This document shows positions 6,802 to 24,373 of a DNA stretch of 29,855 bases, one piece after another. Source of the stretch: a virus. Taxonomy: Duplodnaviria > Caudoviricetes. The position numbers were made by a program, and so were the translations under genes. The stretch lies in the IMG/VR virus record IMGVR_UViG_3300025653_000180, positions 1-29,855 of that record. One strand, written 5' to 3'. Each line of letters opens with the position of its first letter. Within the stretch, counting starts at the first letter, position 1. A model generated the notes under the pieces. The model worked only from the letters and a program-made list of their open reading frames with translations. It ran no database searches and was not told the DNA's origin.

Positions 6802-7410
6802 TTAATTTTTGAGTATTCTGCATACAGATGTTGTTCCTATATTCAATTTTCTACCTATTTCACTTTTGGAAACCCCTGAGCTAAAAAGATCTTTAACTAA
6901 ATTTTTAGTTTCAGCAGAAATGCAACAGCGTCTATTGCTAGCCTGTTTTTTATTGGGTATCCAAATACAGTTAGAAGGGGAGTAATCTCCGTTAACATCT
7001 TTTCGTTCGATGGTCATGCTAGTTGGTCTTGGTCCCATTACTCTGCAAAACTCTTCAAAGGATTGAAAAGAATTTTTAATTCCTCTGCCGCCATAATTTT
7101 TATAGTCCTTACACTTTGGATTTGTACATCTATAGTTTATAGATACCCATGTTTTATAAAGTGGATGTTTTGAGTATCCGTGTTTAGTTGCTTTTTCTTT
7201 TTGTAAACATCCGCAACTTAATGTCTTACCAGAATTCAAGCTCATTCCATAAGTAGTGAATATGGTTCCACACGAACAAAAAACAACCCAGCGAGTTGTC
7301 TGATGTTTATTACTAGGACTGTAACCTAATACTGTTAATCGCCCATAAATTTTGCCTTTTTTGTCTACGACACAGCCATATAATTTGCTCTTAACCTTTT
7401 CCTTGTCCAC
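6802..7410 (-). CDS. Free-standing HNH-type homing endonuclease with C-terminal HTH
   Basis: YGRLTV...CSCG...SCGC, LYKTWVSINYRC, YGGRGI, MGPRP..TIERKDVNGDYSPSNCIW and a C-terminal HTH (KSEIGRKLNIGTTSVCRIL). Confidence 0.85.
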   Translation of the reverse strand: MDKEKVKSKLYGCVVDKKGKIYGRLTVLGYSPSNKHQTTRWVVFCSCGTIFTTYGMSLNSGKTLSCGCLQKEKATKHGYSKHPLYKTWVSINYRCTNPKCKDYKNYGGRGIKNSFQSFEEFCRVMGPRPTSMTIERKDVNGDYSPSNCIWIPNKKQASNRRCCISAETKNLVKDLFSSGVSKSEIGRKLNIGTTSVCRILKN

Positions 7411-7848: not shown

Positions 7849-10629
7849 TTAACCAAATAAAGAGCTATATGAACCCATCATACTTCCCCCTGAATTAAAG
7901 CTATCTTCTTCTTTTTTTTCGTCACTAAAAAGATCAAAATAACTTTTTGCTTTTTCTTGTCCTGTTTGTTTTTTATCTGAGTCAGCAGAAGTACCACTTC
8001 CTAAAATATCATCTCCATCGCCCATAAAACTTGAAACAGAGGCAAGCGCTGAAAAAGGATCATCCTCAATATCACCAACTAATTCATTGATATCACCTAT
8101 TTTTCCTGATGCAACTTTATCCATTAACGCTACATCTTCTTTGTCTAAGTCAGTCATAAACTCATTATAAAATTCTTCTTCAGTTCCTCCATATCCTCCT
8201 TTTTTAAATATATTATAGATACTAGTAGCGCTAGGATTTTTTAATTCTTTTTTGTCTGTTTCTCTTTCAATATAATCAGCTCCTAGATTTAATTGATTTA
8301 AATCTTTATCTCGTTCATTTAAATATTTAATCTCTTGTCGAATAGCAAGCGCGGAGTTTCCGGAGACTGCTTCTTCAACATATCCTCTTAGTTCATCTAA
8401 AGAAGCATCTTCTTCTAAACCTAATTCTTTTGCAAGTTCTTTCCATTCTTCTTTATCTTCAAAAGGATCTAAACCTTCAAAAATTTCATCTGTAAATTCT
8501 TTTGGCGTAGTAAATTTTTGGAAAGCGGTTCCTTTATCAAGTTTTTTTAATGCAGGCAAAACAACATCTGCAAAATTTTTGTCAATATCATATTTGGTAA
8601 CAACGTCTTCTGCAGGGTCATAACCTTTTATTTGACCAATAATTTGATAATGTAATTTAGCAAAGTCTTCTTTTTTGTTGAGATCTAACCCATAATAATA
8701 AGCCCATTGGTTCCATGTAAGATCACTTTTGTCTCCAAAGATTTTTATTTTTTGATTTGGAGTTTTTTTTGCTTTCGCCCAATCATTTTTTATGTTTTCA
8801 CTTTGTTTTTGATAGCTTGTTTTTCTTGCTTTGCTATAATCTTTGCTTGAAGTTTTCAAAGGATTAAAGTAAAAATCAGCATTAAAAGATGATGTTGTTC
8901 CTTTAAGGCTATCGATGTATTCTTTTGCTTTTTCTTCAGACTTGCTTTTTAATGCGTTAAGAGTTGTTTGTGTTTGAAACACGTTTTGTGTTTCAATTTT
9001 ATTTCCTTTTTCGTCGTATTTGGGAACAATACTATCAATGTATTCAGAAAATTCTGACATTGATTTAGATTGATTAAAGCGAGGCGTTAAGTAATTGTTA
9101 ATAAAATCGTTTATATCTTTTTTGTCTAATGCATATTCTTCTTCAATTTCTTTGTCACCATCTTTTGTTTTAATCTTGACGCTCTTCATATTTTCATATT
9201 TTTTGGTGAGTGTTTCATCAAACCATTTTTGCCAGTTACGAATAGTGTTATTACTGGATAAGCCGGTTGCTTTTTCAACCACACCTGTTAATGATTCTTT
9301 AATTCCTTTAGTATTTTCTCCGCCTAATGCAAGAATACCTCCGATACCGCTATCACCCAGAAGTGAATTAACAATGGTTTCATTAGAGTTATAAACCTCT
9401 TCAAAACCTGGCATGTCTCTATACAAACCAAGTTGCGCTTCTTCTTCCTTTGCCTTTGTTAATTCTTCTTGTGCTGTTTTTAAAGCATCTAAAGCAAGCG
9501 TACTAAATGCAAGTTCTTTTTTTTCATAGTCTTTTCCATAACTACCATAAAAATTTTTCTCCATTGCGTTTCTAACGAGTGCTTTTTCTGCATCTGTTTT
9601 TCCTCCATATATTTCTTTATAGCTTTCTGCTGCAGCAGCTGCTACTGCTTTATTTCCTCGAATATTATTACTCTTTCCGTAAGTTGAATAACGATAAGAC
9701 AAGTAATTATCTAACGTTCCATACCTAGAAGTTACATCTAAATTTTTATAACCATAATTACCTATTTTTTGATTACCAGCAGATTTCCATTGTTCTTGTG
9801 CTTTAGGGTCTTTAGTTGAATAATATTTCGTATCAAGTAATCCAGTGGGAGGCTGCTTACCATTTTTTGCAGCATCCCATTTTGAAACTTTATTTTTTGA
9901 ATAAAAAACATCTGCCAATTCTTTTGTTTTGCCTTTGAAGAAATTATCAACAACTGTTTTGTCTCCTAAGTTTGATGCTAGTTTTACCAGGTCGTTATAA
10001 TTTCCTCCTTTGCTGCCATTGAATTGATTAACTAAATTAGTGTACTTATTCCTTGCAGATATAGATAAAACATTTGAAAGCTTTGGATTTAATCTTAATT
10101 GTTCTTTTCCCTCTTTATTTTTTACTACTTGGACAAGGGGGGCATCAGTTTTAATCATGCCTGTTCCTTTTTTGCCTGAGTTCTGCCACTGCTCCATTGC
10201 AATAGCATATTTCTGCTCAGGAGTTGCATTCTTTGGCAAGTTACCTGACAAAGTTGAATAGTTATTTTTTACTAATTCCTTAAAAGTTTGTACTTCTTTT
10301 CTTGAATTAAAACTTTTAAGCCATTCCTTACTTTCATAAGCTTTCATATTTTTTGTTTCTTTTTTTAGTTCTTCTCCCGTTGGTGGTCGCCCTAAATAAG
10401 TTTCATATGCTGCTTTAACAGCATTTTCAGGTTTAAAAGTTTCTGGATTAAACCTAAAGCGGTAGTTATTATCTAAAATTTTAATTGCTTTCTTGCGATC
10501 ACCTTTGTTTTCTGCCAGTATATTTTTATATGCGTCATACCACCCATTACCAGGTTCTGGCACTCGCCCATAAACGTCTAAAAATAACTGCGTAAATTCA
10601 GGATCATAATAAGTATTTACTTTAGCCAT
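7849..10629 (-). CDS. Large (926 aa) putative virion/internal protein
   Basis: Long K/E/N-rich ORF coupled to the upstream gene (TAATG), with an acidic C-terminus. No catalytic motif recognised. Confidence 0.75.
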   Translation of the reverse strand: MAKVNTYYDPEFTQLFLDVYGRVPEPGNGWYDAYKNILAENKGDRKKAIKILDNNYRFRFNPETFKPENAVKAAYETYLGRPPTGEELKKETKNMKAYESKEWLKSFNSRKEVQTFKELVKNNYSTLSGNLPKNATPEQKYAIAMEQWQNSGKKGTGMIKTDAPLVQVVKNKEGKEQLRLNPKLSNVLSISARNKYTNLVNQFNGSKGGNYNDLVKLASNLGDKTVVDNFFKGKTKELADVFYSKNKVSKWDAAKNGKQPPTGLLDTKYYSTKDPKAQEQWKSAGNQKIGNYGYKNLDVTSRYGTLDNYLSYRYSTYGKSNNIRGNKAVAAAAAESYKEIYGGKTDAEKALVRNAMEKNFYGSYGKDYEKKELAFSTLALDALKTAQEELTKAKEEEAQLGLYRDMPGFEEVYNSNETIVNSLLGDSGIGGILALGGENTKGIKESLTGVVEKATGLSSNNTIRNWQKWFDETLTKKYENMKSVKIKTKDGDKEIEEEYALDKKDINDFINNYLTPRFNQSKSMSEFSEYIDSIVPKYDEKGNKIETQNVFQTQTTLNALKSKSEEKAKEYIDSLKGTTSSFNADFYFNPLKTSSKDYSKARKTSYQKQSENIKNDWAKAKKTPNQKIKIFGDKSDLTWNQWAYYYGLDLNKKEDFAKLHYQIIGQIKGYDPAEDVVTKYDIDKNFADVVLPALKKLDKGTAFQKFTTPKEFTDEIFEGLDPFEDKEEWKELAKELGLEEDASLDELRGYVEEAVSGNSALAIRQEIKYLNERDKDLNQLNLGADYIERETDKKELKNPSATSIYNIFKKGGYGGTEEEFYNEFMTDLDKEDVALMDKVASGKIGDINELVGDIEDDPFSALASVSSFMGDGDDILGSGTSADSDKKQTGQEKAKSYFDLFSDEKKEEDSFNSGGSMMGSYSSLFG

Positions 10630-11000
10630 TATGCTGTTTTAAAGCTGTCATCAATTGATTCTACTTCATTTGAAAAGAAGCAGAATATTTGATGATTCAT
10701 CCATTGTTTAATTTTTTCTAACTTATCAGCACAAAAAAATGTTTGTTTTGTATACCAGCTTTCCATATCTTGGCTTGCTTTATTAGCATTACAACGCCTA
10801 CAGGCTGGCATTAAATTGTACCAATTAGAACAACCTGATTTGTATTTTGGAATAATATGATCTAATGAAGTGGCTGTATCACCACAGTATCCACATTTAT
10901 GATCCCAGGCGTTATATATTCCTTCTCTAAATCGTTTCTTCGCAAGTTTAGGTCGTAGTTCAACAAGGAGGGCGAGTGGTTCGTTCTCCGTCCTGAACAT
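10629..11000 (-). CDS. HNH endonuclease (zinc-binding, McrA-like)
   Basis: CGYCG...SLDHIIPKYKSG...NLMPACRRCNANK. Confidence 0.9.
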   Translation of the reverse strand: MFRTENEPLALLVELRPKLAKKRFREGIYNAWDHKCGYCGDTATSLDHIIPKYKSGCSNWYNLMPACRRCNANKASQDMESWYTKQTFFCADKLEKIKQWMNHQIFCFFSNEVESIDDSFKTA

Positions 11001-20243: not shown

Positions 20244-21224
20244 TCACTCCATAACAAATAATTTATTAGCCATGGTGCGAGGATCTGCCTGGTTGATCAC
20301 ACGCCATGCTTGGGTAGGATCAACATCCATTTGTTGCTTGAAAGCACCCCAGAAATCACCAGGTTGTTGGGGAGCTTCTGCTTGAGGGGGAGCAGGCATT
20401 TGGTCATAAGCCTGAGGAGCTGCAGTGGGATAACCAGGTGCAACAAGTTCAGCTTCAGATTCATACACAGGGTATGGACCTTCAGGACCAAAGAAAGTCA
20501 ACGTATAGTCAGACAGAACATCAGGATTAGTCAGGATCTCGTTATAAGCAAGATTCTCTTGATGCTCATTTACCATGAAATTAGCAGCACGACCAAAAGC
20601 TTCTTGTGCTTCATCACCCCAAACAAGGGCACTATCGAGCATTCCTTCGAGATTTAGTGCGTACTGGTTTAGAATTGCCGGAGCCTCCGTTCCGTAATTC
20701 TCCACTACCATCCGGCTCTCCGGACTCCAATTCAGGAGATCCGCTACGTCCGCCAAGGAGCTGACTGAGTAGGTTTGGGAAGAGTTGGGCGATGATGTCT
20801 GGCTTGTCTGCGAGATCTGCTGAGCCGATTGTTCCCAAGTTTGTGCCGGGGCTTGAGGTGCCTGAGTACCCCAGTTGGCCTGGGAATACTGAGTCGGAGC
20901 CACTGCCGGGGCCTGTGATGGTTGACCCTGGAACGGGGATTGAACCGGGCTCCCCAACAGGTTCACCACCTTGTTGAATGCCGACTCCCATGGGTTCCCC
21001 GCCTCCGAAACCTGGGATTGGGGGGCGGATACTGACGGGGCTGATTGGTAACTGGTAGTTCCCTGTGGTGCTGCCTGGGGCACCGCCTGGGGGTAATACG
21101 TCCCCACTGGTGCCTGGGTCGGTGCTGCCGGAGCCGGAGCTGCCGGTGCTGCCGCCACGTAATTGCTCGGGGCCACTGACTGGGGGCTCGTCTGTGGGAT
21201 CGATTGGACGGTAGCGTCCTGCAT
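20244..21224 (-). CDS. Putative capsid scaffolding protein
   Basis: 326 aa with a P/Q/A/S-rich N-half and an acidic helical C-half, between portal and capsid. AAGGAG SD precedes ATG 21224. Confidence 0.7.
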   Translation of the reverse strand: MQDATVQSIPQTSPQSVAPSNYVAAAPAAPAPAAPTQAPVGTYYPQAVPQAAPQGTTSYQSAPSVSAPQSQVSEAGNPWESAFNKVVNLLGSPVQSPFQGQPSQAPAVAPTQYSQANWGTQAPQAPAQTWEQSAQQISQTSQTSSPNSSQTYSVSSLADVADLLNWSPESRMVVENYGTEAPAILNQYALNLEGMLDSALVWGDEAQEAFGRAANFMVNEHQENLAYNEILTNPDVLSDYTLTFFGPEGPYPVYESEAELVAPGYPTAAPQAYDQMPAPPQAEAPQQPGDFWGAFKQQMDVDPTQAWRVINQADPRTMANKLFVME

Positions 21225-22998
21225 AACTCATCTCCTTTTGTAACGCTTCTAAGGTTCGATACAGATAAGGTGTAAGGTCCAATCTTGGATCAGCTGCCAT
21301 TGGCAAGTCTGGAGATTGAGGATGGGGTGTCTGCATCATCCCCCCAACCAAACGAGAAAACTGGTTAAAAGCACCTTGTAACTCGTTGACCATCCTGAAC
21401 GGAAAGCCGGATAGCATCTCCGCTCTTTCCTCATCAGTTTTTGATGGGAAAAGATATTTCAGTGCTTCAATGCTATCAACCCCTAACTCCTGTAAGTTAC
21501 GGACAACAATAGAGTTGTTCAGGATATCTTGCGTTGACTCTTCATATACAGGGCCAAGCCAACGCCATAACATAGTAATATCACCGTCAGGAATTAAACC
21601 CTTTACACCAGGGGGAATCATCTTGGCTTCAACACAAGCCATCAACAAATCTTTCAGCATGGATTCATATTGATCCATCGCTTGTTTATAAAGCATTTCC
21701 TCTTCTTCACTTGCATTTTCTTCTGGTGCAATAGGTTTTTCAAACTTTGCAGCAGCAGCAAGTGTATCTTTAAACATCTGCTCTTCTTGATATACAATCA
21801 GTTCAAGACAACGGCAGATACCATGAGTGTAAATAGAATTTGCTTTTTTCTTTGATGTTGCAGCAACACGTCCGAATAATGATTTGTATTCAGTTGCTGT
21901 AACACCTGCACTAATGGATAGTTCATCAACACCACCTAAAGCAGTGCGAATCTCTTCCCTGAACTGACGAACAAATGCATTCTGATCTCCAGAGATTGCA
22001 TCAGGGACAATATAACCAACTCGATCATTAGGCTCAAGATTAGCAATCACCCGTGGAACACGAAGCTGACCATCGACGCCACGGCTAATAGGATCTTGTT
22101 TAAAAGTAGATCTCGACATCGGAGACATACTTTGGAATCCTGAATTTGCTGCAATAGAAGGACGTTGAGGACCGCTATCGGCATTGCCTGGTTCTAAAAG
22201 ATCTGTCTTAGGACGAGAAGATAATAAAGTTGGATTACCAAAGAACTGTAAGTTCTTTCGCATATTACGAACTAAATCATCATGGATAATGATGTGATTA
22301 GCAAGCTGGTCAAATTCACCACTACCGTCCATGGTGAAACCCTTGGGGTTGTTAAAGATTTCTACGCAAGGAATGAAACGAAGTTGATTTTTAAACTTTT
22401 TAGTTTTACCAGGCATTGTTGCACTGATATTGTCAAATGAAATTTCACCTTCTGAGTGAGTTTCTTCAATAGTATTTGCTTTAATTGAAAGTCGAATATA
22501 ACGTTTTTGTCCAGGGGTATTAAATCCCATACCAGCTTGAGATTGAGCACAAGGAGTATCAATGCCACCCAGGCCAATATCTTGATAAATGCCTCCTTTC
22601 CCTTTCTTTACCTTATAGCTATAGATGATGACAACTTCTTCTAATTCACCATCAACGTTGTAATAGCTTCGATACTCATGGCTACGGAAATAATAGAGAC
22701 GATAATTATTTTTAGTAGGCCGGATATAAAAAATCCCCTTTCCATCACATAGGAAATAATCCCATATTGAATCAAGACGCGTATCTAATTTGTTATATTT
22801 GATAACTTTGTCAATAAAATCTTTGCGCTGATTACCAAAGTTATCTTGTGCTGGAAAGTATTCGACGCCTTGGCGAATACCAAAAAGTTTCATTTGCGCA
22901 AGATGACTTGCAACAATACCAGTATCAACATACTCTCCACCGTCTCGCTCGATGTACGAGTTAATAATTTCTTTTAAACGAGACTTAGCGTCGGACAT
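20632..22998 (-). CDS. Portal protein with long G/S/P-rich C-terminal tail
   Basis: 788 aa, between TerL and scaffold/capsid. Portal-like features include D.LCDGKG..Y, N.L.FIPCVEI.N, GEF..L...I..HD and W..V...ST.D. Confidence 0.8.
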   Translation of the reverse strand: MSDAKSRLKEIINSYIERDGGEYVDTGIVASHLAQMKLFGIRQGVEYFPAQDNFGNQRKDFIDKVIKYNKLDTRLDSIWDYFLCDGKGIFYIRPTKNNYRLYYFRSHEYRSYYNVDGELEEVVIIYSYKVKKGKGGIYQDIGLGGIDTPCAQSQAGMGFNTPGQKRYIRLSIKANTIEETHSEGEISFDNISATMPGKTKKFKNQLRFIPCVEIFNNPKGFTMDGSGEFDQLANHIIIHDDLVRNMRKNLQFFGNPTLLSSRPKTDLLEPGNADSGPQRPSIAANSGFQSMSPMSRSTFKQDPISRGVDGQLRVPRVIANLEPNDRVGYIVPDAISGDQNAFVRQFREEIRTALGGVDELSISAGVTATEYKSLFGRVAATSKKKANSIYTHGICRCLELIVYQEEQMFKDTLAAAAKFEKPIAPEENASEEEEMLYKQAMDQYESMLKDLLMACVEAKMIPPGVKGLIPDGDITMLWRWLGPVYEESTQDILNNSIVVRNLQELGVDSIEALKYLFPSKTDEERAEMLSGFPFRMVNELQGAFNQFSRLVGGMMQTPHPQSPDLPMAADPRLDLTPYLYRTLEALQKEMSYAGRYRPIDPTDEPPVSGPEQLRGGSTGSSGSGSTDPGTSGDVLPPGGAPGSTTGNYQLPISPVSIRPPIPGFGGGEPMGVGIQQGGEPVGEPGSIPVPGSTITGPGSGSDSVFPGQLGYSGTSSPGTNLGTIGSADLADKPDIIAQLFPNLLSQLLGGRSGSPELESGEPDGSGELRNGGSGNSKPVRTKSRRNAR

Positions 22999-23129: not shown

Positions 23130-23333
23130 TTAATTTTTATTTTTATATCTTCTAGCTGCTCTGCTAGCTTTCTTTGCTTTCTCTGTATTAGGGACAAACT
23201 GTTTTCCTTTACGAGAACCTTCTCGTTTTTTACGATCAGTATCTTCCCTTTCTTTTTTAGAAAGAGAAGCCCATGCTTTCTTGGGAAGGTAACGTTTGGT
23301 TGTGCCGTCTGGTTGCCGTGCGCGTTCAGCCAT
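23130..23333 (-). CDS. Small basic protein (RYLPKKAW...KQFVPNT family)
   Basis: 67 aa and K/R-rich. It resembles the C-terminal half of proteins whose N-terminal half is the GGKPG.WSARKAQ domain. Confidence 0.8.
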   Translation of the reverse strand: MAERARQPDGTTKRYLPKKAWASLSKKEREDTDRKKREGSRKGKQFVPNTEKAKKASRAARRYKNKN

Positions 23334-23334
23334 T

Positions 23335-23775
23335 TTAAATATGCTTCCAGGTTCTTCTATTTACAATTGCTGAAATGGTGTTGTGATCTACTCCATATAG
23401 TCTACCTAATTGTCTCACTCCACATCCTTTTTCTTTTAAGTCTCTAATTTTTAAAACTTGCTCTTCGGTTAATTTTGAACTTGCTACTTTTTCTCCTTTT
23501 GCATGTTGCATTTCTCTTGTATTTTCAGCAAGAAGTTTCCAAGTGACATTACCAGGTTCATAGTTTCCTTTGTCTCCTTTACGTGCAAGAACATGGCCTT
23601 CTGGACGCTCACCCATGTCCTCTAAAAAATTTGAATATTTATCCCAGCGTTCACATATGGTTACTCCTTTTCCTCCCCAATATTTAAAACCTTTAGCATT
23701 TTTATCCAAGCAACGCGATCTCATAGAACGCCAACTATTATACGTCGGCGTTCTTCCTTTTGCATCCGTTTTCAT
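23335..23775 (-). CDS. Free-standing HNH-type homing endonuclease with C-terminal HTH
   Basis: TYNSWRSMRSRC, YWGGKGVTICERW..Y.NFLEDMGERP, GNYEPGNVTW, SKLTEEQVLKIR and the HTH LGRLYGVDHNTISAIVNRRTWKH. It has an ATGA overlap with the upstream gene. Confidence 0.85.
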   Translation of the reverse strand: MKTDAKGRTPTYNSWRSMRSRCLDKNAKGFKYWGGKGVTICERWDKYSNFLEDMGERPEGHVLARKGDKGNYEPGNVTWKLLAENTREMQHAKGEKVASSKLTEEQVLKIRDLKEKGCGVRQLGRLYGVDHNTISAIVNRRTWKHI

Positions 23776-24083
23776 TTCTTGTCTTTAGCTCTCTTAGCTA
23801 CTTTAGCGGCTTTTCTTCCTTTTTCGTAATCATCTTTAGTACCCCATTTTTCACGGGTCCACTTGCTTAATTTCTTTTGTTCTTTACCTTTACCGCCTTT
23901 ATATCCGCCACCAGCTTTCTTATACTCGGAAGCAACGAGCTGCGCCTTTCTAGCCGAAATAATTAGTTAGCCTTACGGCTACGACCATTCTCCCGGTTTA
24001 CCGCCACGGCCTTCACGCATGACTTTGTTTTTAATGCGCTCACGCAAATCTGGTTTGGTGTACTTGCTTTTATCTTCAGCCAT
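23772..24083 (-). CDS. Small basic protein (DUF5872-like, WSARKAQ motif) interrupted by a 27-nt in-frame coding gap; 94 aa if bypassed
   Basis: GAGG SD and ATG 24083 give MAEDKSKYTKPDLRERIKNKVMREGRGGKPGEWS, then the gap, then ARKAQLVASEYKKAGGGYKGGKGKEQKKLSKWTREKWGTKDDYEKGRKAAKVAKRAKDKK*. Both halves are intact and in the same frame. Confidence 0.85.
23955..23984 (-). other. Putative programmed ribosomal bypassing (hop) element, T4 gene 60-like
   Basis: Take-off TCG (23984-23982), then TAG stop, then stem-loop TAGCC-GTAA-GGCTA, spacer ACTAATTATT and matching landing TCG (23957-23955). Confidence 0.8.
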
Positions 24084-24136
24084 AACTTCCTCGCTCTTTA
24101 AAATAAGTGACTGCGTTTGTCAATACATCTATATTA

Positions 24137-24373
24137 TCACCGTCTTAATTGTTCTAAGACTGCGTTGCGTTCTTTTGCTGTCTTACCAATATAATTCAAT
24201 GCATCTCCCATGCTTCTAGTTGATCCATCTGGATTATTTCCATATAAACCAGAACCACCTAAGGGTTGTTGTTCTAAACCACCGGTAATAGGACTAAATA
24301 GAGCATTACCATATTCCTGAAACCAAGGCAGATAGCGACCAGCAAGATCTCCAATTTGTTTAAAAAAATCCAT
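24137..24373 (-). CDS. Hypothetical protein
   Basis: 78-aa ORF starting 2 nt after the upstream stop. Confidence 0.55.
   Translation of the reverse strand: MDFFKQIGDLAGRYLPWFQEYGNALFSPITGGLEQQPLGGSGLYGNNPDGSTRSMGDALNYIGKTAKERNAVLEQLRR

Follow-up and report, generated by a model that had tools for sequence, protein, structure and literature searches.

A candidate ribosomal bypass gap in a DUF5872-like phage gene, carried by an endonuclease VII-type cassette

Programmed translational bypassing in bacteria so far rests almost wholly on a single case, gene 60 of phage T4. A second case is suggested by a 29,855-nucleotide (nt) stretch of Caudoviricetes DNA (IMG/VR record IMGVR_UViG_3300025653_000180, positions 1 to 29,855), hereafter the window, in which a small DUF5872-like gene, hereafter the host gene, is split by 27 nt holding three in-frame stops. 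Do ribosomes cross this gap, or is the gene dead, spliced or divided into two products? A first-pass annotation made from the letters alone had proposed a miniature gene 60-related hop element here, and the position and sequence of its gap, the matched TCG/TCG codons, the three stops and the 5-bp GNRA hairpin are all confirmed on the minus strand. From comparative sequence data we consider it probable that ribosomes bypass the 27-nt gap and make one DUF5872-like protein of 94 amino acids (aa). The annotation had overlooked an endonuclease VII cassette, of which the gap forms the right end and of whose nuclease the window genome has lost all but 66 nt. The parts of the split gene, as open reading frames (ORFs) and shorter elements, are as follows.

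23982..24083 (-): ORF1, 34 codons, ATG at 24083; the cassette's copy of the host gene 5' end (DUF5872-like / phrog_17747)
23988..23993 (-): GGA GAA (Gly31-Glu32), purine-only codons immediately before Trp-Ser
23990-23982 (-): codons GAA TGG TCG closing ORF1
23982..23984 (-): predicted take-off codon TCG (Ser34)
23981-23955 (-): gap of 27 nt, TAG CCG TAA GGC TAA CTA ATT ATT TCG, with three in-frame stops
23968..23981 (-): UAG stop within the 5-bp hairpin UAGCC-GUAA-GGCUA, a predicted A-site stem-loop
23958..23967 (-): AU-rich spacer of 10 nt with no earlier TCN inside
23955..23957 (-): predicted landing codon TCG
23772..23954 (-): ORF2, 60 codons, the host-derived DUF5872-like 3' half, from GCT AGA AAG GCG CAG to the TGA at 23774-23772

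Conservation of the gap among related phages

Without the gap, ORF1 and ORF2 join into 94 aa with the split point at W-S|A-R-K. The two halves match adjoining positions of the phrog_17747 profile (16-44 and 45-63), and uninterrupted relatives match DUF5872 (profile search; Atlas). The host gene lies between terL and a portal-like gene, and its best cultured match is in Synechococcus phage S-EIVl, where it is uninterrupted; a cyanobacterial host for the gap-carrying phages is therefore likely. Within the window alone, the stem pattern with at most one mismatch is expected 0.56 times by chance, the hairpin folds with a z-score of -2.18 on 36 nt and -0.33 on 71 nt, and the post-hoc pattern of matched codons, TAG and GNRA hairpin was found in 5 of 300 Markov shuffles, so that the window's hairpin by itself is weakly beyond chance. 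The main evidence for the gap is its conservation among relatives, which is strong.

A gap at precisely the same site occurs in 30 of 41 related viral loci; of the others, 10 are uninterrupted and 1 is truncated. Pattern scans yielded at least 75 distinct carrier alleles with 33 gap sequences. One scan fixed the stem, and others freed the stem, stop type, landing or take-off codon; two left both stop type and landing free, one of which also allowed AGY take-off. All searches needed a stop after take-off, so hungry-codon variants would be missed, and the allele counts are lower bounds, not frequencies. Left out were a spurious 30-nt match in L070 and 168 of 243 free-pattern hits that were not the host gene. 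An assembly artefact, one of the refutations that the annotation had named, is ruled out, because the identical 27-nt gap is seen in many independent contigs. Of the best 80 matches to an alignment of uninterrupted alleles, a search biased toward such alleles, 79 read W-S-A/G-R gapless (the remaining one, L197, was not parsed).

Gap lengths are 23, 24, 25, 27, 28, 29, 32 and 33 nt, and every length restores W-S-A-R-K, with 18, 5 and 10 of the 33 gaps in frames 0, 1 and 2. In the 75 carrier alleles listed, the take-off codon is always TCG and the next codon always TAG, while landing is at TCG in 71, TCT in 2 and TCA in 2; one tRNA may read all three codons by wobble. TCG stands at the take-off position in only 2 of 85 uninterrupted alleles listed and in 11 of 114 further (Met-type) ones listed, and it is the rarest Ser codon in window genes (16 of 379 Ser codons, 12 genes). 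No such restriction is seen at other four-fold codons of ORF1, which vary freely. Of the 33 gaps, 32 share one and the same stem, and the loops are GTAA (16), GTGA (10), TTAG (2) and GGGA, GAGA, GCAA and GAAA (1 each), that is, GNRA of six types in 30 gaps and UUAG in 2, so that changes stay within stable tetraloop classes. In predicted folds the hairpin pairs with a probability above 0.5 in 62 of the 75 alleles listed.

Spacers of 6-16 nt follow the stem, with A or T at 281 of 325 bases (86%). The dinucleotide TC occurs in none of the 33 spacers, compared with a mean of 11.5 and a minimum of 5 in 2000 shuffles, the alleles being related and not independent. When loci were found by the stem with the downstream sequence unconstrained, the first TCN 3' of the stem resumed ARKAQ in 50 of 50, which fits the prediction for a tRNA-Ser scanning to its first match. 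Each gap has at least two frame-0 stops, no in-frame gap has just one, and no start codon in the resume frame occurs in the 33 gaps.

The endonuclease VII cassette

Upstream of the gap, a typical carrier has a 32-codon host fragment ending in G-Q-stop, followed by an endonuclease VII-type gene of 201-215 aa (PF02945 at an E-value of 1e-22 when intact), whose stop overlaps the ORF1 start. The cassette junction falls within the Trp33 codon. Long flanks are available for 42 carriers: the nuclease is intact in 31, reduced to short 3' remnants with differing end points in 7 and absent in 3, and 1 contig is too short; no nuclease is upstream in the 85 uninterrupted alleles listed (82 with at least 800 nt upstream). 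After nuclease loss (the 7 remnants and the 3 without nuclease), the gap and both halves remain intact. In the window genome, the host fragment and most of the nuclease are deleted, and two further features of the window belong here.

24076..24141 (-): nuclease remnant of 66 nt, the last 21 codons and the stop; tblastn 95% to aa 195-215 of the L003 nuclease
24092-24088 (-): GAGGA, likely ribosome-binding site of the host gene, inside the nuclease remnant

A tree of the ORF1 copies splits the carriers from 24 uninterrupted alleles by 1 change (support 96/97), whereas in the tree of the 3' halves the carriers are mixed among uninterrupted alleles, with 14 changes of which at least 6 are forced by strong branches. 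Both trees come from short alignments, are midpoint-rooted for drawing only, and exclude those uninterrupted alleles (61 of 85) with a 3' frame outside 55-62 codons. Pairs such as L024 and L206, 96% identical downstream and about 64% upstream, tell the same story. The 1 versus 14 changes and such pairs indicate that nuclease, 5' copy and gap move jointly onto different 3' halves. Read in this way from the sequences, a mobile endonuclease VII cassette consists of the nuclease, its own copy of codons 1-34 and, at its right-hand end, the gap. The downstream HNH-like gene (23335-23775) was considered as mobiliser and rejected; it adjoins the host gene only in contigs L001 and L002, near-identical to the window, and in the uninterrupted L033.

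All 7 short remnants (window 24076-24141; L011, L024, L030, L066, L070 and L081) retain the last 19-62 codons of the nuclease, which suggests that a needed ribosome-binding site or promoter lies there; a promoter scan of the window gave no clear one. Immediately 5' of the nuclease start, at L003 1864-1899, an extended -10-like TGnTATWGT lies within an inverted repeat, TTTGTGCT ... AGCACAAA, which recurs at 24 or more carrier junctions and has a fold z-score of only -1.13; T-even homing endonucleases have similar regulatory hairpins, as far as the available passages of the source go (PMC2988022). More distant endonuclease VII genes that share the YLKERGSY ending stand directly before another small DUF5872-associated-type gene or unrelated genes in L132-L135 and L140 (beyond the end of the match) and in L136-L138 and L141-L142; no gap was found in the next 330 nt at any of these loci. 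Two carrier alleles with nuclease, L620 and L621, are on 2.7-2.9 kb contigs in two Bacteroidetes metagenome-assembled genomes (MAGs) and are probably mis-binned phage contigs.

Proposed translation across the gap and its alternatives

As the sequences show, insertion of the full cassette at the Trp33 codon leaves a host fragment of 32 codons that ends in a stop, and supplies the nuclease gene, fresh codons 1-34 and the gap. We propose the following for translation, which would pick up again in the 3' half of the host gene. On the model of T4 gene 60, the ribosome would pause when UCG occupies the P site and UAG the A site, and the UAGCC-GNRA-GGCUA hairpin would form in the A site and hinder release. 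The peptidyl-tRNA-Ser would then detach, slide across the AU-rich spacer driven by EF-G, and re-pair at the first UCN, where translation would restart; ORF1 would be the nascent peptide at take-off. As in MobA, the gap would shield the cassette-bearing allele from its own nuclease with the protein sequence unchanged. According to the available parts of three T4 sources, pausing, an A-site hairpin, EF-G-driven sliding and re-pairing take place there, and shorter gaps in T4 constructs are bypassed more efficiently (PMC7026636, PMC11194080, bioRxiv 2024.12.09.627546). By the same analogy, the short gap may offset missing stimulatory signals.

The capacity for a full-length product seems to be kept. 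In all 10 carrier records (of which 7 are 90% complete or more), no copy other than the gap-bearing one has a 3' half. This half is open over 47-62 codons in each of the 42 carriers, those 10 that lack the nuclease among them, so that the decay of the downstream half that the annotation had named as a refutation is not seen. The cassette's 5' copy has a ratio of nonsynonymous to synonymous change (dN/dS) of 0.19 overall and 0.067 in the window's clade (clade A). An AlphaFold2 model of an uninterrupted relative (L038) has a mean predicted local distance difference test score (pLDDT) of 73 and a predicted template modelling score of 0.49, with a confident two-helix core at residues 8-52 that spans the junction (pLDDT 87-90 for residues 11-50).

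The alternative that survives best is that the gap kills the gene, as part of a selfish nuclease cassette in a dispensable gene whose 3' half is intact only because the insertions are recent. Several insertions are indeed recent, since some carrier 3' halves are 94-96% identical to uninterrupted alleles, and dN/dS offers no rebuttal: the 3' halves score 0.14 and the orphan host fragments 0.11 (only pairs with a proportion of synonymous differences up to 0.6, 87 of 861 and 28 of 210), so the ratio of the 3' halves cannot be attributed to the carrier state and was discarded as proof of their function. Yet a separate clade of 3' halves, with open frames, is made up of 15 carriers, and orphan fragments are visibly broken (a frameshift in L006, a deletion in L026) against 42 of 42 open 3' halves. 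Gene death also leaves unexplained the invariant rare TCG at take-off, landing variants that are all Ser codons (TCG in 71 of the 75 alleles listed), loop changes limited to GNRA, and the exact restoration of frame over 8 lengths. We judge it very unlikely.

A tiny intron, cut from the RNA by an unidentified enzyme or trans-acting ribozyme, would restore the frame whatever the length, and the conserved hairpin could serve as its recognition site. However, the gap has no Rfam match and no 3'-boundary consensus besides the Ser codon itself, and we know of no bacterial intron of 23-33 nt. RNA data were contigs of two metatranscriptome runs and one run of unknown kind (shares 0.07-0.31). One 157-nt RNA-library contig, which may be a single fragment, contains ORF1, the whole gap and about 31 nt beyond, and two contigs of another RNA run cross the take-off codon and extend 18 nt into the gap, while no gap-skipping joint is listed in the two RNA runs (few contigs, depth 5-9). 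This gives weak support for an unspliced gap, and splicing retains a slim chance.

An equally slim chance attaches to two separate peptides, with termination at the UAG and re-initiation in the 3' half, as in the nrdA/MobE and gene 39/60 splits. An ATG at codon 6 of the 3' half in 16 of 42 carriers, including both TCT-landing alleles, would suit such a restart, but a Met at codon 6 is common in uninterrupted alleles as well (at least 114 distinct ones), and all 16 such carriers retain the preceding A-R-K-A-Q, with synonymous changes only. Moreover, 11 of 42 carriers, the window included, have no in-frame ATG, GTG or TTG anywhere in the 3' half. Least probable of all is a weak terminator or attenuator hairpin with product made by readthrough, simple frameshifting or RNA polymerase skipping the hairpin: the window hairpin passes a terminator-like scan, but of the 33 gaps only 12 have 5 or more T in the 8 nt that follow the stem, the longest run of T in a gap is 1-4, and the two or more frame-0 stops per gap and lengths in all three frames speak against this reading.

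Returning to bypassing, several observations weigh against it. A mini-Shine-Dalgarno (mini-SD) sequence (GAG, GGA, GGG or AGG) 5-7 nt before landing is absent, the spacers holding 6 G in 325 bases. The fold upstream of the gap is not unusual in the window (z-score 0.52), and ORF1 has 34 codons only, its sequence set by the host protein. No compensatory change is found in the stem; covariation gives no signal because the stem does not vary. The only hairpin-less allele, L029 (2603-2626), keeps TCG/TAG/TCG and an open 3' half, and its full nuclease has a C-terminal extension, the normal stop being lost. To these are added the low dN/dS of the orphan fragments given above, the possible presence of DNA among the RNA-library contigs, and the absence of a PDB match to the host protein by sequence or fold, which leaves it without a function from that source. 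Its viral matches are unnamed or uncharacterised, except for one ParB/sulfiredoxin fusion at an E-value of 0.002.

Signals elsewhere in the sequence could stimulate a hop. Codon 31 is GGA or GGG in all 75 carriers listed versus 19 of 85 uninterrupted alleles listed, and codon 32 is GAR in 74 of the 75 versus 2 of the 85, one pattern scan having required GAR; the 114 Met-type uninterrupted alleles listed contrast less (GGA/GGG in 52, GAR in 20). These purine codons are possibly an internal SD-like stimulator, or else an escape from the nuclease site, and their register equals that of the internal SD at the RF2 frameshift site. The nearest AGG, GAGG or GGAGG is formed by the loop and 3' arm, 9-19 nt before landing, with GAGG or GGAGG mostly in gaps of up to 25 nt and AGG in longer ones, a pattern that may reflect one or two events. 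In the gene 60 family an extended take-off stem has the take-off codon paired in its 5' arm; the window fold includes a lower stem UGGU/ACUA with the CG of the take-off codon unpaired, and the pairing bases vary among alleles. A K-Y-T-K stretch 24-27 residues before take-off is equally present in uninterrupted alleles.

Relation to gene 60 and neighbouring observations

The gene 60-like hop proposed by the annotation is well supported by the comparative data, but descent from gene 60 is not, since the likeness is confined to the 10-nt stem and the mini-SD is absent. For comparison we used the available passages of a survey of gene 60 homologues, which calls the gene 60/MobA cassette unique and describes its occurrence in Topo2L alone, at codons for Gly or Asp, with a mini-SD in every case except one, loop variants including GNRA and UUAG, a 20-nt gap in clade 6, and gap immunity to the cassette's own nuclease (bioRxiv 10.1101/2022.08.31.505936, Manning & Atkins). 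On that partial view of the source, the two systems share matched take-off and landing codons with wobble variants, a UAG directly after take-off, the same 10-nt stem UAGCC/GGCUA (in 32 of 33 gaps here) with a stable tetraloop, an AU-rich 3' part without early landing sites, a homing-nuclease cassette carrying its own copy of the sequence before take-off, and frequent loss of the nuclease with retention of the gap.

The differences, with the same scope, are as follows. The target here is Ser34 of a DUF5872-like gene, as opposed to Gly46/Asp45 of Topo2L; the nuclease is of endonuclease VII type and not MobA HNH, GIY-YIG or VSR; the codon is Ser UCG instead of Gly or Asp; and the gap is 23-33 nt, compared with 50 nt in T4 and 20 nt in clade 6. 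The mini-SD 5-7 nt before landing is lacking, the 34-codon ORF1 has by inspection no likeness to the T4 N-terminal extension with its KKYK/Y16, the cassette re-supplies the whole N-terminus where the T4 protein is split, and the bacterial host is likely cyanobacterial. The gap family would thus work in the manner of gene 60 but, differing in target, nuclease, codon and mini-SD, is not a demonstrated member of the gene 60 family. The T4 gap sequence that the annotation quoted is accurate against NC_000866. The CUA and AUUAUU that it read as shared do not hold up across the family: likeness to the last 6 nt of the T4 gap averages 2.73 of 6 matches, against 2.55 for shuffled spacers (95th percentile 2.88), and homology to T4 on these grounds was rejected.

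Where, then, did the stem come from? Read in reverse complement, the landing context CGGCTA gives TAGCCG, the first six bases of the gap, and the GGCTA of the stem copies it directly. CGGCTA is found in the window and 21 of the 75 alleles listed, and CGGC in 71, whereas the T4 landing context has no such sequence. The stem arms may thus be an inverted and a direct copy of the host landing context, a local origin that we place somewhat ahead of descent from a T4-type cassette. More tentatively, and with a little less than even confidence, we suggest a second independent invention, in which a cyanophage endonuclease VII element built its gap from its target and arrived by convergence at precisely the stem of T4, the hop needing neither a mini-SD nor a nascent-peptide signal of its own. 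If so, bypassing can arise from one small inverted duplication, and the 33-allele natural series would define its minimal requirements.

Three other systems are comparable within the available passages of the sources. The byps of Magnusiomyces mitochondria are likewise mobile, span 27-55 nt and have matched codons, a hairpin, an AU-rich 3' part and no SD; they differ in being mitochondrial, in having an unassigned codon after take-off and many sites per genome, and in that those passages describe no linked nuclease (bioRxiv 10.1101/2022.08.31.505936, PMC7026636). The UUA bypass in the terminase gene of Streptomyces phage phiHau3 is also a short programmed hop in a phage gene, but there a rare sense codon is the trigger and the proposed role is regulatory, whereas the gap here has a stop within a hairpin and nuclease linkage (PMC10732093). 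Free-standing phage homing endonucleases also lie near their likely target, with a start overlapping the upstream gene and a hairpin before the start; in contrast, the insertion here interrupts the gene itself, and a translational gap would confer the immunity (PMC2988022). In the literature on programmed bypassing that we could cover, from which subscription journals are largely missing, no report of a DUF5872-like/endonuclease VII gap family was found.

With the gap family, a hop of the gene 60 type would extend to a further gene, nuclease family and codon, and probably to a further phylum of bacterial hosts, and the family's natural variants (8 lengths, 7 loops, 3 landing codons and a hairpin-less allele) probe which of the T4 signals are needed. 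It supports the idea that gaps are a general route for homing nucleases to immunise their own allele with the protein unchanged. It is also a warning that gene callers truncate gap-split genes.

The search of viromes suggested by the annotation found 86 loci by stem and AU tail in the viral scan, and with them the gap family, but not the same cassette in other genes. The candidates for the latter were a recurring motif that looks non-coding and scattered hits, and were rejected, the scattered stem hits having no long open frame before a matched codon and the candidate in L274 lying inside an ordinary ORF in another frame. In GTDB genomes the same scan gave 3 hits, of which 2 are family members on short MAG contigs and 1 is unrelated; stem plus AU-tail scans would miss other loops or spacers. 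The recurring motif, TGATAGTGA-TAGCC-GNGA-GGCTA-TTTAYATGAAATTACGCGGCG, is present in L228 (601-660) and about 20 viral contigs with stops in the preceding frame, and looks like a conserved non-coding RNA, with no Rfam match at the gathering score in L228 and L241.

In the window itself, no tRNA gene was found. The free-standing HNH-like gene at 23335-23775 separates the host gene from a small basic ORF (23130-23333); in many uninterrupted alleles a 3' frame of about 102 codons seems to take in this second, basic-ORF part. Besides the endonuclease VII remnant, the window has three HNH-like genes within 30 kb (6802-7410, 10629-11000 and 23335-23775). A Gln/Pro/Ala-rich ORF of 326 aa (20244-21224) overlaps the last approximately 590 nt of the 788-aa portal-like ORF (20632-22998) on the same strand in another frame.
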